64,000 nt of DNA, from the NCBI RefSeq assembly GCF_044324785.1, contig NZ_CP172127.1. One strand, 5' to 3'. The notes beneath the pieces are model-generated. The model saw only the letters and a program-made list of their open reading frames with translations. It ran no database searches and was not told the DNA's origin. The DNA is from Escherichia coli (GTDB lineage: Bacteria > Pseudomonadota > Gammaproteobacteria > Enterobacterales > Enterobacteriaceae). Numbering within the stretch: the first letter of the stretch is position 1; every line of letters starts with the position of its first letter. A program made the position numbers and the translations under genes. Below, in pieces: positions 5,146-64,000 of this stretch.

Positions 5146-5913
5146 GTGTTTAATTCTGACAACCTGAGACTCGACGGAAAATGCGCCATCATCACAGGTG
5201 CGGGTGCAGGTATTGGTAAAGAAATTGCCATTACATTCGCGACAGCTGGCGCATCTGTGGTGGTCAGTGATATTAACGCCGACGCAGCCAACCATGTTGT
5301 AGACGAAATTCAACAACTGGGTGGTCAGGCATTTGCCTGCCGTTGTGATATTACTTCCGAACAGGAACTCTCTGCACTGGCAGACTTTGCCGTCAGTAAG
5401 CTGGGTAAAGTTGATATCCTGGTTAACAACGCCGGTGGCGGTGGTCCTAAACCGTTTGATATGCCAATGGCAGATTTTCGCCGTGCTTATGAACTGAATG
5501 TGTTTTCTTTTTTCCATCTGTCACAACTTGTTGCGCCAGAAATGGAAAAAAATGGCGGTGGCGTTATTCTGACCATCACTTCTATGGCGGCAGAAAATAA
5601 AAATATAAACATGACTTCCTATGCATCATCTAAAGCTGCGGCCAGTCATCTGGTCAGAAATATGGCATTTGACCTGGGTGAAAAAAATATTCGGGTAAAT
5701 GGCATTGCGCCGGGGGCAATATTAACCGATGCCCTGAAATCCGTTATTACACCAGAAATTGAACAAAAAATGTTACAGCACACGCCGATCAGACGTCTGG
5801 GCCAACCGCAAGATATTGCTAACGCGGCGCTATTCCTTTGCTCGCCTGCAGCCAGCTGGGTAAGCGGACAAATCCTCACGGTCTCCGGTGGGGGGGTACA
5901 GGAGCTCAATTAA
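5146..5913 (+). CDS. hdhA: 7-alpha-hydroxysteroid dehydrogenase (SDR family), GTG start
   Basis: ORF 255 aa, Rossmann motif TGAGAGIG, recognised HdhA; first codon is GTG. Confidence 0.92.
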   Translation: MFNSDNLRLDGKCAIITGAGAGIGKEIAITFATAGASVVVSDINADAANHVVDEIQQLGGQAFACRCDITSEQELSALADFAVSKLGKVDILVNNAGGGGPKPFDMPMADFRRAYELNVFSFFHLSQLVAPEMEKNGGGVILTITSMAAENKNINMTSYASSKAAASHLVRNMAFDLGEKNIRVNGIAPGAILTDALKSVITPEIEQKMLQHTPIRRLGQPQDIANAALFLCSPAASWVSGQILTVSGGGVQELN

Positions 5914-55055: not shown

Positions 55056-55108
55056 GGGCGGCAGAGCAGTCACGGAGTAAAACTGATACCGCCAAACGTC
55101 ACCAGAAA
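55056..55108 (-). ncRNA. dicF: DicF small regulatory RNA
   Basis: Minus strand reads TTTCTGGTGACGTTTGGCGGTATCAGTTTTACTCCGTGACTGCTCTGCCGCCC followed by TTTTT; recognised DicF with 3' GC hairpin. Confidence 0.88.
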
Positions 55109-59394: not shown

Positions 59395-60030
59395 ATGCGA
59401 AAGTTCAAAATTATTATTGAAACGGGAATAGCTGGTGGAGATTTTGAGGATGTATTCGAAGTGGACGATGACGCAACACCTGATGAAATTCATGACGGAG
59501 CATAAGAAATTTTCTTTAACTACTGCAATTACTCATACCACGAAATAAAAGACGATGAGGAAGAACAAAGTGGCTGATTTTTGTTCAGCTAAATATAACA
59601 TCAGTTTTGAAGAGCGGGATGAACTATTAATGGACTATGGTGAGTTACGCGGTGGAAGTGCTGCTGATGTCGAATCCTAGCGTGATGACTATGAAGCGGG
59701 AAAAACTCCGGTCGAAGCATATTGTGAGGAGTGGGGCGATGAATGAGCGAGATTAATTATCAGGAAGGGCATGAAACGGCGGGGCAAGCAAAACCAGTGA
59801 CATGGCGATATCGCTACGTGAAAAAAGGCGTTACGGACTTTCAGGGGAAGTAGTGGTCTGGTGACTGGAAATATGTACCGAAAAAAGAGGATTGTAACGA
59901 CAGGCCGAACTATCAAATTCAGGCCTTATTCACTGCCTCACCAGTCCCGGTTACATCAGAAGAATTGGTTAAAGCTGTGCACTTTTATGAACAACTAAAA
60001 CGCGAAAATCCACCAACATCCGGCAACTAG
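59395..60030 (+). pseudogene. cluster of short ORF fragments in shifting frames, likely decayed prophage gene(s)
   Basis: Successive 15-60 codon ORFs separated by stops and frame changes (MRKFKIIIETG..., MRKNKVADFCSAKYNISF..., MSEINYQEGHETAG..., ...KYVPKKEDCNDRPNYQIQALF...). Confidence 0.4.
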
Positions 60031-60284
60031 ATTAATGGGTTAACTATGTCGGTTAAACGACCAGCCAACTGAAAAAGCGGAAACCTGATTACAGGTTGCC
60101 AGATAAGGCAATGAGCTACCTGGCGCGGAACGGACTGATAAGTATGGGGAATGTTTTACGATGAACCTTTAGACTAAAGAGTTTGTAACGCTATGTAAGT
60201 GATTTTTTCTGGTTTAGATATTTATATGTCCGGCCAAATTGAGGTGTGTTTAAATGTAATTGCACATTGATTGTAGGAGGAATA

Positions 60285-60464
60285 ATGAAAAACGCATTGC
60301 AGTTTTTGTTTGTTGCGTTCTGGTTGTTCGCATCATGTATGCCCATCATCTTCACAGCAAGGTATATGGAAAAAGTTGATGTTTTGATATTAATATTTGG
60401 ATATATAAATGCCCTTTTTTTAGGGGTGTTCATGGCGGTCATGTGCATTGAATACTGGCGGTAA
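60285..60464 (+). CDS. unrecognised 59-aa two-helix membrane protein
   Basis: ATG preceded by consensus AGGAGG at 60275-60280 (4-nt spacer); product MKNALQFLFVAFWLFASCMPIIFTARYMEKVDVLILIFGYINALFLGVFMAVMCIEYWR; AT-rich context. Confidence 0.55.
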   Translation: MKNALQFLFVAFWLFASCMPIIFTARYMEKVDVLILIFGYINALFLGVFMAVMCIEYWR

Positions 60465-60798
60465 ATACAGCGAACTCCATTGGTTTAGTTGGATATTTAC
60501 TGTGCTGGACAAAAACGGTTTGCGGGGAAATCTTAGTTAAGTAGAATGACTGCGGGTGCTTGAGGCTATCTGCCTCGGGCACGAACACCAACGGCAGGTA
60601 GAGAAAAGCCCCAGTTAACATTACGCGTCCTGCAAGACGCTTAACATTAATCTGAGGCCAATTTCATGCCAGACACATGTAGGTTAGCCTCTTACGTGCC
60701 GAAAGGCAAGGAGAAGCAGGCTATTGTTAACACCAAGCTGTAATGTCCCCTTTGAACCATTCTAAAATGTCCCCAGACAATTCTCTGGGGGATTTTTC

Positions 60799-61764
60799 AT
60801 GACCAAAGAAACTGTTACGATGAGTCATAAGGAACTCCACCGACTTCAGATTATTCAGGAGTCAATTAATCGACATATTACTCAGGAACAAGCTGCGGCA
60901 CGCATTGGCATTTCTATTCGGCAGGTTAAACGTCTGGTGCAACGGTATAGAAATGAAGGGCCTTCTGGTCTGGTTTCCCACCGACGTGGAAAGCGTCCTA
61001 ATAATTCCTTTTCTACTGAATTCAGAGCAACAGTAATTTTACTCCTCAAAGGCCGTTACGCTGATTTTGGACCTACGTTTGCGTGCGAAAAATTGCGCGA
61101 GATACACGGTTTATCTTTATCCGTTGAAACTCTCAGAAAGTGGATGATAGAAGAGGGGGGTATGGCGTGAACGCCGTCGTAAAATTGCCCGTATATATCA
61201 ACGCCGCATGCGACGACCATCTTACGGTGAACTGATCCAGATTGATGGCTCACCTCATGACTGGTTTGAAAATCGAGGCCCCAGATGTACACTGATCGTT
61301 TTCATTGATGATGCCACCAGTGCGTTGATGGCGTTGCGTTTTGTGCCTGCTGAAACAACCCGGGCTTACATGGAAACCCTCCGGGGTTACCTTAATGATC
61401 ATGGCGTACCGCTCGCTCTCTACTCTGATAGACACAGTATATTCAGGGTAAATAACCCAGAGCGGGAAGGTGAGCTGACCCAGTTCACTCGTGCGATAAA
61501 GACACTGGGCATCGAGCCAATCCATGCCAACAGCCCGCAGGCAAAAGGGCGGGTAGAGCGCGCCAATCAGACACTACAGGACAGGCTGGTCAAAGAAATG
61601 CGGCTTCAGAATATCAGTGATATTGAAACAGCAAATGCATGGTTGCCGACCTTTATTGAAGCCTATAACAACCGGTTCGCTACGTCGCCTCGTACTACTG
61701 ATAATGCTCATCTTGATGTGCACCATTCTGAAGAGGAACTGGGTTATATCTTCAGCCTACAGGC
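60799..61764 (+). pseudogene. IS481/ISNCY-like DDE transposase gene (HTH plus rve core), frameshifted at a G6 run and interrupted by IS903
   Basis: ORF 60799..61170 (HTH) and frame-shifted ORF opening at 61151 (…IQIDGSPHDWFENRG…RVERANQTLQDRL); frames would fuse if the G6 run at 61155-61160 were G5; coding sequence broken at 61764. Confidence 0.7.
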
Positions 61765-62821
61765 GGCTTTGTTGAATAAATCAGATTTCGGGTAAGTCTC
61801 CCCCGTAGCGGGTTGTGTTTTCAGGCAATACGCACGCTTTCAGGCATACCTGCTTTCGTCATTTTGTTCAGCGCTCGTACCAGGGCCATAGCCTCCGCAA
61901 CCTGACCATCGTAGTCACGCAGCGTCAGTGAACCCCCGAACAGCTGTTTTACCCGGTACATCGCCGTTTCCGCTATCGAGCGACGGTTGTAATCTGTTGT
62001 CCATTTCCACCGCGCATTACTCCCGGTCATTCGCTGATTAGCCACTGCACGGTTACGGTCTGCATATTCACCGGGCCAGTAACCCGCACCTTTTCGGGGA
62101 GGGATAAGCGCGCTGATTTTCTTACGCCGCAGTTCATCGTGACATAGCCGGGTATCGTAAGCGCCATCGGCGGCGGCTGACCTGATTTTCCGGTGGGTTT
62201 GCCGGATTAACCCGGGGAAGGCCTCTGAGTCCGTAACGTTGTTCAGCGACAGGTCAGCGCAGATGATTTCATGTGTTTTACTGTCAACGGCGAGATGCAG
62301 CTTACGCCAGATACGGCGGCGTTCCTGGCCATGCTTTTTGACTTTCCACTCGCCTTCACCGAAGACCTTCAGCCCGGTGGAATCAATTACCAGGTGTGCG
62401 ATTTCACCCCGGGTGGGCGTTTTGAAACTGACATTAACCGACTTTGCCCGCCTGCTGACACAGCTGTAATCCGGGCAGCGTAGCGGAACGTTCATCAGAG
62501 AAAAAATGGAATCAATAAAGCCCTGCGCAGCCCGCAGGGTCAGCCTGAATACGCGTTTAATGACCAGCACAGTAGTGATGGCAAGGTCAGAATAGCGCTG
62601 AGGTCTGCCTCGTGAAGAAGGTGTTGCTGACTCATACCAGGCCTGAATAGCTTCATCATCCAGCCAGAAAGTTATGGAGCCACGGTTGATGAGGGCTTTA
62701 TTGTAGGTGGGCCAGTTGGTGATTTTGAACTTTTGCTTTGCCACGGAACGGTCTGCGTTGTCGGGAAGATACGTGATCTGATCCTTCAACTCAGCAAAAG
62801 TTCGATTTATTCAACAAAGCC
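61765..62821 (-). mobile_element. IS903-type insertion sequence (1057 bp) with 9-bp target site duplication CCTACAGGC
   Basis: Terminal inverted repeats GGCTTTGTTGAATAAATC at both ends; identical 9-bp direct repeats at 61756-61764 and 62822-62830. Confidence 0.9.
61821..62789 (-). CDS. IS903 transposase (IS5 family)
   Basis: ORF 322 aa (…AKQKFKITNWPTYNKALINRGSITFWLDDEAIQAWYESATPSSRGRPQRYSDLAITTVLV…), recognised IS903/IS102 transposase; true start may be a few codons in. Confidence 0.88.
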   Translation of the reverse strand: MKDQITYLPDNADRSVAKQKFKITNWPTYNKALINRGSITFWLDDEAIQAWYESATPSSRGRPQRYSDLAITTVLVIKRVFRLTLRAAQGFIDSIFSLMNVPLRCPDYSCVSRRAKSVNVSFKTPTRGEIAHLVIDSTGLKVFGEGEWKVKKHGQERRRIWRKLHLAVDSKTHEIICADLSLNNVTDSEAFPGLIRQTHRKIRSAAADGAYDTRLCHDELRRKKISALIPPRKGAGYWPGEYADRNRAVANQRMTGSNARWKWTTDYNRRSIAETAMYRVKQLFGGSLTLRDYDGQVAEAMALVRALNKMTKAGMPESVRIA

Positions 62822-62830
62822 CCTACAGGC

Positions 62831-63206
62831 GAAGCGCGTTCTGTCTAAAAATCTCACTTTCCAGTACAAAAGCAGTGCGTTTCAGGTACGCAGTGAGGGC
62901 CGGGGATATCGACTTAGGCATTCGGTTGTTACTGTATGCGAGAACTTTGACGGTGAAATTAACGTTCTGTATGACGGGAAAGCGCTGGGCTGGGAAAAGT
63001 ATGTTGATGGCCCGGAGCCTATACCACTGGATGATGAAAAGAGTGTCCATGAACGAGTGGATAATGCCCGTATTGATTTACGCTCAAAATACTATGTTAA
63101 ACCTAAAGCTGACCATCCCTGGCTTACGCGCCGAACGCAAAGTCATCAGCAAGTTAAGCCCCCGAAGTTACCTAAAAAGAAGCCTGATCCCGATAAAAAA
63201 GATTGA
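62831..63206 (+). pseudogene. 3' part of the IS481/ISNCY-like transposase gene displaced by the IS903 insertion
   Basis: After removing IS903 and one TSD copy the reading frame continues from 61764 into 62831 (…SLQ|AKRVLSKNLTFQYK…) to a stop at 63204-63206. Confidence 0.7.
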
Positions 63207-63601
63207 AACCAAGATCGATTCGGTTGAGTGCATATCCATTCATAGGGTAGATTCTTAAGTCGCGTTTCTGGTGTTCATTTTCGGGTGGTTTGTTACTTGT
63301 TTTACCGGGGATATGCCAGAAACGCGCTGAGTCAGTCTGGGCGGTGCGCGTAATGAGGCGTTATGGTAAATAGCCTATGCTAATGTCCGCTAAGAGCAAG
63401 AAGCGGAAGTTGGCAGTTTTGTGGACTGTCCCCACAAATGTGACTACAGAAATAGTTGCAATTCATAATTGATCATGGGTTGTCAGTTAAACTCGTGGCG
63501 ATTTAAATAGACTAATTGGGAGTGCGTCCATTACTTATATCTTGTAATGTTAACTATCAGAAATGATACAAAGATAATATGTCTTTAAAGAAAAGGCTGA
63601 T

Positions 63602-63628
63602 GGCGAAAAGTGGCCCGATGAGGGCCAC
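63602..63628 (-). terminator. Rho-independent terminator after flxA
   Basis: GTGGCCC-tcatc-GGGCCAC hairpin followed by TTTTCGCC on the minus strand. Confidence 0.7.
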
Positions 63629-63642
63629 AATACGGCTGTCAC

Positions 63643-63975
63643 TTAGACGTAAATATCAATGGTGCCAGCGGTATTTGTATCGTCTTTTTTCTCTTCTTTT
63701 TTATCAGGCTGAACTGTCGCGTCTTTATTCTTTTTCTCTGCCTGCTGCCTTAACAACTGCTCCAGTTGAGCCCTGAGGCTTTCAATTTGCTTCTGTACCA
63801 ATGCAGCCATTTCTTTTTTCTGCTGTGTCGTCATCCCCTCTTCCGATGAGATTTTCCCAAGCTTTTCAGTCAGCACCTGAATTTGTCTTGTGATTTTGGC
63901 TATTTCTGATGTTCCTTCCGGGGCGGAGTTGTTTGAAATAACGGTTGAGGTATTTCCCTGAATTGTGACAGACAT
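63643..63975 (-). CDS. flxA: Qin prophage protein FlxA
   Basis: ORF 110 aa (MSVTIQGNTSTVISNNSAPEGTSEIAKITRQIQVLTEKLGKISSEEG…), recognised FlxA. Confidence 0.88.
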   Translation of the reverse strand: MSVTIQGNTSTVISNNSAPEGTSEIAKITRQIQVLTEKLGKISSEEGMTTQQKKEMAALVQKQIESLRAQLEQLLRQQAEKKNKDATVQPDKKEEKKDDTNTAGTIDIYV

Positions 63976-64000
63976 AGATTTCTCCTTTTAAAAAAGCACT

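Follow-up and report, generated by a model that had tools for sequence, protein, structure and literature searches.

Near the right edge of a 64,000-nucleotide stretch of Escherichia coli DNA (RefSeq assembly GCF_044324785.1, contig NZ_CP172127.1; hereafter the window, with positions counted from its first letter) lies a transposase gene that has been broken twice, by a frameshift at a run of G residues and by a copy of the insertion sequence (IS) IS903B, and the question it raises is what kind of element the gene belonged to, where that element ends and how the damage came about. The nested insertion by itself is routine genome decay; the point of interest is the identity of the host element. 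With a probability of roughly 0.88 the locus records three successive events. First, a unit transposon of 3,302 bp, belonging to the IS1202 family, would have entered a Qin-like lambdoid prophage in the region where translation of hokD initiates, duplicating 15-16 bp (GGAGAAGCAGGCTAT), so that the mok/sok leader stayed on its left and the hokD open reading frame (ORF) came to lie behind relBE. In one sublineage a C-to-G change would then have turned a run of four G residues into five (G5) and an added G have made it six (G6), frameshifting the transposase. Finally IS903B would have jumped, in the opposite orientation and with a 9-bp duplication, into the part of the dead gene that encodes the DDE core.

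What follows from this reading reaches beyond the one locus. Real ends and a 15-16-bp target duplication can now be given for an ISEsa1-like IS1202 element; published surveys report none for the subgroup. The flxA, ydfV and relBE genes of the Qin prophage would be transposon cargo, the same unit being present on plasmids and chromosomes of other Enterobacteriaceae, and resistance to nickel and chromate is encoded by a sister element of 12.8 kb. A hokD gene without its regulatory leader, its co-transcription with relBE and the nature of the orphans ydfW and ydfX would all find an explanation. Targeting of hok leaders and exchange of cargo at an internal Xer site are raised as hypotheses.

Ends and target duplications of the host transposon

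The left end of the host element is at position 60725 (TGTTAACACC...; TGTTAACACCAAGCTGTAATGTCCCC...), where homology starts in more than 12 unrelated left contexts alike, those compared including Klebsiella plasmids (L005, L007), Enterobacter sp. Ag1 (L011), Citrobacter (L014, L015), Escherichia sp. ESNIH1 (L016) and ten chromosomal contexts (L023-L032). The repeat that begins there has a TGT tip, an AATGTCC box at about positions 17-26 and, some 24 nt inward of it, a second box. When the genes around the same protein were surveyed in unrelated genomes its left neighbours were always different, and its right neighbours were always either FlxA-YdfV-RelB-RelE or a nickel/chromate resistance block.

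Within the window there is no right inverted repeat: the best ungapped match to the left end in a scan of 63150-63520 is 15/30, and no ACA ending with a box was found. The initial annotation had also failed to find terminal repeats, the reason being that the right end lies beyond position 64000. It is seen in complete copies elsewhere. Contig L032, which is chromosomal, has the element between hemP and a gene for a TonB-dependent haem receptor (hemR), and there relE is followed by ...CTGCTTTGCGTTGACA and then by the 16-mer GTTGCTATGCCACACC, which also stands directly before the left repeat. The reverse complement of the right repeat, TGTCAACGCAAAGCAGAAGTGTCACC..., agrees with the left repeat at 16/22 and 22/30 positions; the next-best position in the 8.5-kb IAI1 locus reaches 18/30. 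So delimited, the unit is 3,301-3,302 bp long (12,843 bp in pCAV1193-258), and at six independent sites it is flanked by perfect 15-16-bp duplications (listed in Table 1). The full element was seen in seven of the loci compared (L001, L004, L006, L029, L032, L044 and L046). The 3.3-kb copies in E. coli IAI1, in a Salmonella plasmid and in contig L032 differ at 5-8 positions, which points to recent spread as a unit.

E. coli IAI1 is the nearest guide to the strain studied here, as over 59800-64000 the two sequences differ by IS903 with its 9-bp duplication, which IAI1 lacks, and by a single mismatch, and are otherwise the same. In IAI1 the 15-mer GGAGAAGCAGGCTAT comes directly after the right inverted repeat and runs into the hokD ORF, ATGAAGCAGCAAAAG. 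Judging from IAI1-type relatives, the right end in the present strain, comprising ydfV-relBE, ...GCGTTGACA, GGAGAAGCAGGCTAT and hokD, would lie beyond 64000.

The ends proposed initially, at about 60745 and 63383, accordingly give way to 60725 and to a point after relE outside the window, the recommended alignment to uninterrupted copies having supplied both the left end and the 3,302-bp unit. The motif on which they had been based, TAATGTCC(C/G)C, does occur in direct orientation as had been said: the window has two plus-strand copies and no others, at 60741-60750 and 63381-63390, where about 0.17 would be expected by chance and 0/100 shuffles gave two. Its role as a marker of the ends did not survive: the first is a box of the left inverted repeat and the second adjoins a cer-like site. 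Three further placements were tried and rejected. A left end at the TGT of TAATGTCCCC (60744) is ruled out by the start of homology to independent copies at 60725; a right end inside the window is ruled out too, the 15/22 match concerned (60738 versus 63319) falling in the cer accessory region and off the boundaries; and the point at about 63222, close behind the transposase stop, which two diverging Citrobacter copies had suggested as the right end, was re-read as a cargo junction. The apparent terminal-repeat match in one of these copies (L015) coincides with the ArgR-box palindrome in the cer-like site of that copy. For the relatives in Citrobacter, Escherichia sp. ESNIH1 and Enterobacter Ag1, no right end was found in about 3-4.5 kb of downstream flank, and these may be larger elements.

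Four points weigh against the three-event reading. The window stops at 64000 within flxA, and this strain's right repeat, right duplication and hokD are outside it. An empty hokD site, with leader joined to ORF, was not recovered. Mobilisation of the unit by the 446-residue transposase rests on sequence comparison. Lastly, Harmer and Hall 2023 (PMC10132070) list ISEsa1 as an IS of 1,609 bp with 15/22 terminal repeats and no duplication detected. On the other side, the anatomy of IS903B, the frameshift and the left end with its duplication can be read directly in the window, and the complete element can be read in IAI1 and at five other sites. If the transposase acts as others of its family do, it would bind the TGT-tipped repeats and their AATGTCC boxes and cut its target with a stagger of 15-16 bp.

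The hokD leader and the K-12 Qin locus

The sok match in the window (Table 1) ends exactly at the transposon junction, and the segment concerned is 86% identical to plasmid hokD/Hok regions. In IAI1, in O157:H7 493/89 and in K-12 the right copy of the duplication leads straight on into the hokD ORF, ATGAAGCAGCAAAAG..., the duplicated 15-mer consisting of the hokD Shine-Dalgarno sequence and the first two bases of the start codon. As the sok match ends at the junction and the duplication continues into hokD in relatives, 60554-60725 is on this comparison the hokD leader, split from its ORF by the transposon.

K-12 has the same genes in the same order in its Qin relBE-hokD (relBEF) locus, the difference being that the transposon is unrecognisable there after loss of its left end. 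The right repeat, the duplication and hokD are kept, and everything to the left of about 63022 has gone, the hokD leader and the bulk of the transposase gene included. The ORFs ydfW and ydfX of K-12 are relics of the transposase, orphaned because the left part of the transposon was lost; the ydfW annotation maps to 63057-63206 in IAI1, D53-1 and plasmids. It has been reported that relBE was acquired horizontally beside hokD (PMC6379469) and that relB, relE and hokD are co-transcribed (PMC5120126), an operon layout that would have arisen because the insertion put the hokD ORF directly downstream of relBE. No description of relBE-ydfV-flxA as transposon cargo was found in the literature searched. 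The right-hand part of the window is assigned to a Qin-like lambdoid prophage on account of DicF, flxA and neighbours of the DUF977/YdaT type in relatives.

hok leaders as a recurrent target

hokD is not the only hok gene to have been entered. Matches to sok that end at the left repeat are present in the window and at five diverged loci (L006, L023, L027, L028 and L031), with scores of 86-128 bits, and the left flanks of the pCAV copy (L007) and of a Kluyvera copy (L013) are also hok-leader homologues. In a small and opportunistic sample, hok leaders thus make up about 8 of roughly 15 distinct insertion contexts, which suggests that they are a preferred target. At three of the hok-type sites the unit has its own perfect duplication on both sides, the three being mutually different, and the points of insertion lie a few bases apart.

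The association could instead be due to common ancestry of, or recombination between, hok loci, or to selection for silencing of the toxin, with no choice of target by the transposase. This is a live alternative, if one well short of even odds: hok loci are homologous and could pass an insert by recombination, an insertion that separates hok from its leader may be tolerated or selected for, and about half of the sites are not hok at all. Yet the leaders are diverged (Rfam scores run from 86 to 128 bits), and the distinct two-sided duplications GGAGAAGCAGGCTAT, TGGAGGGGCTATGAT and GGAGTTGTATGGGTCC, with their offset points of insertion, argue for independent transposition rather than recombination between hok loci. 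No plasmid record holds both halves of a junction between a hok leader and the cer-like flank, as would be expected of two parts that were never adjacent.

Two loci in the comparison deserve mention here. L027 has tandem hok leaders (1774-2059 and 2280-2428), the first with an intact Hok ORF and the second interrupted at its end by the left repeat. The other is in Citrobacter sp. 18056 (L014), where the rdlD antitoxin RNA is matched (RF01813; 2812-2875) some 50 bp away from the left repeat of a copy whose transposase is 80% identical; this too is a type I toxin-antitoxin locus, which recalls the association with hok.

A cer-like site and alternative cargo

From left to right the transposon consists of the left repeat, the transposase gene, a cer-like site, flxA, ydfV, relB, relE and the right repeat. 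The segment 63223-63371 is a predicted cer-like resolution site for XerCD, ArgR and PepA, in which XerC and XerD arms, a central region and accessory sequence can all be recognised. Each arm matches the xrs arms listed by Siguier et al. at 10/11 positions. Many ColRNAI plasmids have unannotated cer-like regions to which the region as a whole shows about 75% identity. With ColE1 cer it shares the palindrome resembling an ArgR box, the blocks GGGTGGTTTGTT and TTTTACC, and both arms; it departs from cer in a central region of 7 nt instead of 8, in having a XerC arm that only about 136 bp of accessory sequence separate from the transposase stop, and in its location in a transposon and not in a ColE1 backbone. 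The palindrome was called against the ArgR-box consensus. Beyond the XerD arm, TAATGTCCGC is identical to a box in the left repeat of ISKpn21 and is also found beside a related cer-like site in L010.

The sister element in pCAV1193-258 (L043, record positions 76637-89479) is 12,843 bp long, and where the small element has flxA-ydfV it has ncrYCBA, chrBA and further genes. It shares with the 3.3-kb element positions 1-1621, with the left repeat, the transposase gene and the cer-like site, and the last 712 bp, with relBE and the right repeat. The two do not differ at all over 706-1565; they differ at 1566, in the Xer central region, and at 1608 and 1618, and are unrelated from 1622 on. A pattern of this kind, made up of three mismatches, is the trace that XerCD exchange between related cer-like sites would be expected to leave. 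The left part of the ncr/chr element, from the transposase to beyond chrA, is also present with different left flanks in several enterobacterial chromosomes (L033-L038, L042), where the right end lies beyond the 10-kb flank that was fetched.

It is tempting to combine the two strands and propose that ISEsa1-like cargo transposons prefer the Shine-Dalgarno/start regions of hok type I toxin genes, whereby the toxin ORF is uncoupled from mok/sok and comes to lie behind the transposon's own relBE, and that they swap their middle cargo, flxA-ydfV against about 10.5 kb of ncr/chr genes, by XerCD action at the cer-like core. This proposal is tentative, its chances being somewhat short of even. If it is true, the relBE(-hokD) locus of K-12 is the fossil of such a transposon, and the published status of ISEsa1 as lacking a target duplication needs revisiting.

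Could the host be no more than a simple ISEsa1-like IS of about 1.4-1.6 kb with a decayed right end, the cer-like site and flxA-relBE being neighbouring prophage DNA? The 1,609 bp listed for ISEsa1 (PMC10132070) would suit this, the homology of two Citrobacter relatives is limited to about 1,433 bp and breaks off just past the transposase stop, and the flxA-type and ncr-type copies have 1,621 bp in common from the left end. It is nevertheless quite unlikely. No inverted repeat occurs near the transposase stop or elsewhere in the window, and units of 3.3 kb and 12.8 kb, with a 22/30 pair of repeats and perfect 15-16-bp duplications, stand at six unrelated sites, one of them between the normally adjacent hemP and hemR; the duplications largely refute the idea. 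As to ISEsa1 itself, the length shared by the two cargo types, 1,621 bp against the listed 1,609 bp, raises the thought of a mis-delimited left arm, and the entry may equally be a genuine cargo-less relative, since its published repeat score of 15/22 resembles the 16/22 found here.

Relics of the same arrangement are seen in more distant copies. In L014 (5790-6152) and L016 (about 5600-5832) a full-length-looking transposase gene and one cargo gene are followed by the 3′ end of a second transposase gene and a cer-like site, by which the junction of transposase end and cer-like site recurs in diverged lineages. In Kluyvera sichuanensis (L013, about 4395) the cer-like site of a 93%-identical copy is interrupted by an end of IS1 (GGTAATGCTGCCAACTTACTGATTTAGTGTATGATGGTG), which had at first resembled an element boundary.

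The broken transposase gene

Excision of IS903B with one copy of its repeat rejoins the transposase flanks in one frame, and further removal of one G gives an ORF of 446 codons that ends at 63206. Both parts of this reconstruction had been anticipated in the initial annotation, with G5 as the sequence that fuses the frames; the first was reproduced by script, and the second is borne out by L006, which has G5 and the same ...EEGVWRERRRK... junction. The reconstructed protein differs at few residues from the intact annotated 446-residue proteins of L005 and L006. Some 200 plasmids from Klebsiella, Enterobacter, Salmonella and E. coli, and many chromosomes as well, have intact ORFs of this length that are about 99% identical, and the Prokaryotic Genome Annotation Pipeline (PGAP) names these 'IS1202-like element ISEsa1 family transposase'.

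At the G run, alignment to uninterrupted copies shows GAG GGG CTA TGG (GGGGC, for instance in L005 and L004) or, in L006, GAG GGG GTA TGG (G5). The G6 allele is found in 49/788 E. coli records, the remainder having a 60-nt allele with one gap and one mismatch relative to the 61-nt query. As intact copies have one continuous ORF with GGGGC or G5, and G6 is a minority allele, the run is by this comparison a true frameshift mutation and not a programmed shift. IAI1 carries the same G6 without the IS903B insertion, because of which the frameshift is probably the older of the two lesions, and it is from this that we infer the order of the second and third events.

Programmed +1 frameshifting, or transcriptional slippage, at GAGGGGGGT would have left the transposase functional until IS903B arrived. 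Many IS families do frameshift between an ORF for the helix-turn-helix (HTH) region and a catalytic ORF, and PGAP annotates the upstream ORF as a separate protein, in IAI1 as 'helix-turn-helix domain-containing protein'. The possibility is very improbable all the same: intact relatives need no shift, having their 446 codons in one ORF with GGGGC or G5, family reviews describe an IS1202 transposase encoded in a single frame, the G6 allele is rare, and the shift would have to be +1, the usual one being -1.

PGAP flags even intact 446-residue copies (for example that of O157:H7 493/89) as pseudogenes 'missing C-terminus', a consequence of the ydfW annotation, and for plasmid pMNCRE44_5 ydfW is all that is listed of the transposase gene. 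In E. coli D53-1 (L002) and in L012 the transposon is an allele of 3,274 bp, in which a 27-bp in-frame deletion in the HTH region leaves a transposase of 437 residues. About 30 small Vibrio cyclitrophicus 'PE' phage records (H113-H130, about 9-13 kb) have a roughly 50%-identical homologue at the very end of the record; an IS1202-family gene may form the border of these elements or be mobilised along with them.

Placement in the IS1202 family

The gene had been described initially as IS481/ISNCY-like. The second half of that description holds, the NCBIfam ISNCY model NF033594 covering residues 17-377 of the reconstructed protein with 462.5 bits against a cut-off of 250; the first half does not, the IS481 model NF033577 scoring 130.8 bits, under its curated cut-off of 224. 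The description as a transposase with HTH and DDE regions likewise stands, Pfam detecting HTH_28, HTH_29, HTH_23 and HTH_32 in the N-terminal part and an rve_3 core. An origin as a prophage integrase remnant, for which location in a lambdoid prophage and the name intK (an old K-12 gene name for ydfW/ydfX) might speak, has next to no chance: Pfam and NCBIfam detect HTH and rve (DDE) domains and no tyrosine- or serine-recombinase domain, transposase models score above their cut-offs, and the same protein is intact on plasmids and at non-prophage chromosomal sites, flanked by target duplications.

On these profile and motif matches the family of the outer gene is IS1202 (formerly ISNCY, 'ISEsa1-like') and not IS481, and the host element is a new, well-delimited member of that known family. 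Siguier et al. 2022 (10.1101/2022.12.17.520857) describe as the family signature a Q at the seventh position past the catalytic E, together with extra conserved D residues in the interval from D1 to D2. The reconstructed protein has E-R-A-N-Q-T-L-Q (...GRVERANQTLQ...), with Q at +7, and ...FIDDATS... between QIDGS and YSDRHS, read directly and not from a family alignment, supplies the extra D residues. A single ORF of 400-500 codons with HTH and DDE regions, and imperfect TGT-tipped repeats with a box, also fit the family, the left repeat being in the window and the right one taken from IAI1 and other copies.

Within the family the closest likeness is to the ISEsa1/ISTde1-type subgroup, with which the element shares the single 446-codon ORF, HTH, DDE, Q+7, a variable C-terminal tail, TGT repeats and AATGTCC boxes. 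Siguier et al. (10.1101/2022.12.17.520857) place ISEsa1 in the 15-17-bp ISTde1-type subgroup, where it is entered without data; the duplications at the six sites fall in that range, the window holding only the left copy (60710-60724). Unlike ISEsa1 as listed, the present transposon has 1.7 kb (or 11 kb) of cargo between transposase and right repeat, a comparison that was made with the published listing and the PGAP name of ISEsa1 and not with its sequence. ISKpn21, a 'tIS' of the same family, has a passenger gene too, and its repeats show the same box layout and the TAATGTCCGC box (Siguier supplement); the cargo differs, being here the cer-like site and relBE with either flxA-ydfV or metal-resistance genes, and so does the apparent target, here the start region of hok. 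ISAba32 and ISAjo2, again of the IS1202 family, are likewise associated with XerCD sites, their left end lying 5-6 bp from a XerC arm and their duplications being of 5 bp. The present transposon is unlike them in that no xrs (a site resembling XerC/XerD arms) was seen beside the left end in any left flank read by eye, its cer-like site being internal and towards the right, in its 15-16-bp duplications and in its recurrent hok-leader target.

Table 1. Features of the window, and target duplications of the transposon at its six sites
Feature	Position	Strand	Sequence or basis
DicF small RNA	55056-55107	-	Rfam RF00039, 76.7 bits
Orphaned hokD leader (mok/sok region)	60554-60725	+	Rfam RF01794 'sok', 99.8 bits (gathering score 59)
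Left 15/16-bp target duplication of transposon	60710-60724		GGAGAAGCAGGCTAT; hokD Shine-Dalgarno to AT of ATG
Left inverted repeat (IRL), TGT tip	60725-60780	+	Boxes TAATGTCCCC at 60741-60750 and AAATGTCCCC at 60765-60774
Transposase N-terminal ORF (HTH domains)	60799-61170	+	ORF list; early stop from frameshift
G6 run, +1 frameshift mutation	61155-61160	+	Script and comparison with intact copies
Transposase DDE core up to IS903B insertion point	61161-61764	+	+1 frame; reconstruction
Left 9-bp target duplication of IS903B	61756-61764		CCTACAGGC; abuts IS end
IS903B	61765-62821	-	1,057 bp; transposase ORF 61821-62789 on minus strand
Right 9-bp target duplication of IS903B	62822-62830		CCTACAGGC; abuts IS end
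Transposase C-terminal part	62831-63206	+	Reconstruction; last 49 codons (63057-63206) are 'ydfW'
Predicted cer-like Xer site	63223-63371	+	Block alignment with ColE1 cer; starts about 17 bp after transposase stop
ArgR-box-like palindrome	63229-63242	+	TGCATATCCATTCA; within cer-like site
Xer core	63343-63371	+	GGTGCGCGTAA-TGAGGCG-TTATGGTAAAT; aligns with ColE1 cer core
Direct-orientation copy of left-repeat box	63381-63390	+	TAATGTCCGC; 10 bp beyond XerD arm
Homology breakpoint, flxA-type versus ncr/chr-type cargo (Klebsiella, Enterobacter)	63398-63411		Comparison of copies
flxA, first cargo gene	63643-63975	-	ORF; annotation in IAI1, O157 and plasmids
Target duplication, E. coli hokD			GGAGAAGCAGGCTAT
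Target duplication, hok locus of Salmonella IncI plasmid			TGGAGGGGCTATGAT
Target duplication, hok-like site of pCAV1193-258 (12,843-bp version)			GGAGTTGTATGGGTCC
Target duplication, hemP/hemR			GTTGCTATGCCACACC
Target duplication, L029			CTGTAAAGCCAGCAAC
Target duplication, downstream of argG			TATCACCCCAGGTTG

The inner IS903B copy

The inner element is an ordinary IS903B copy, and its description in the initial annotation, with inverted repeats and a clean 9-bp duplication, was upheld by sequence script and profile matches. Its perfect 18-bp inverted repeats, GGCTTTGTTGAATAAATC, are at 61765-61782 (plus strand) and 62804-62821 (minus strand) and occur nowhere else in the window, the number expected from shuffles being 0; the 9-mer CCTACAGGC is likewise present solely at the two positions that abut the element. 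The transposase scores 357.4 bits with the NCBIfam IS5_2 model (NF033579; cut-off 140) and matches DDE_Tnp_1_5 and DDE_Tnp_1 in Pfam (PF13737, PF01609). Over its full length the DNA is 100% identical to RefSeq copies annotated 'IS5-like element IS903B family transposase'. Length with 18-bp repeats, 9-bp duplication and a DDE_Tnp_1 transposase above cut-off thus all place it in the IS903 group of the IS5 family, and it differs from IS903/IS903B in nothing besides its insertion site.

A 151-nt probe for the left IS903B junction has no full match among 5,426 complete E. coli genomes, by which the insertion at this site is specific to one strain or lineage and presumably recent. In E. coli D53-1 (L002) a different IS903B copy lies just upstream of the hokD leader, outside the transposase gene.

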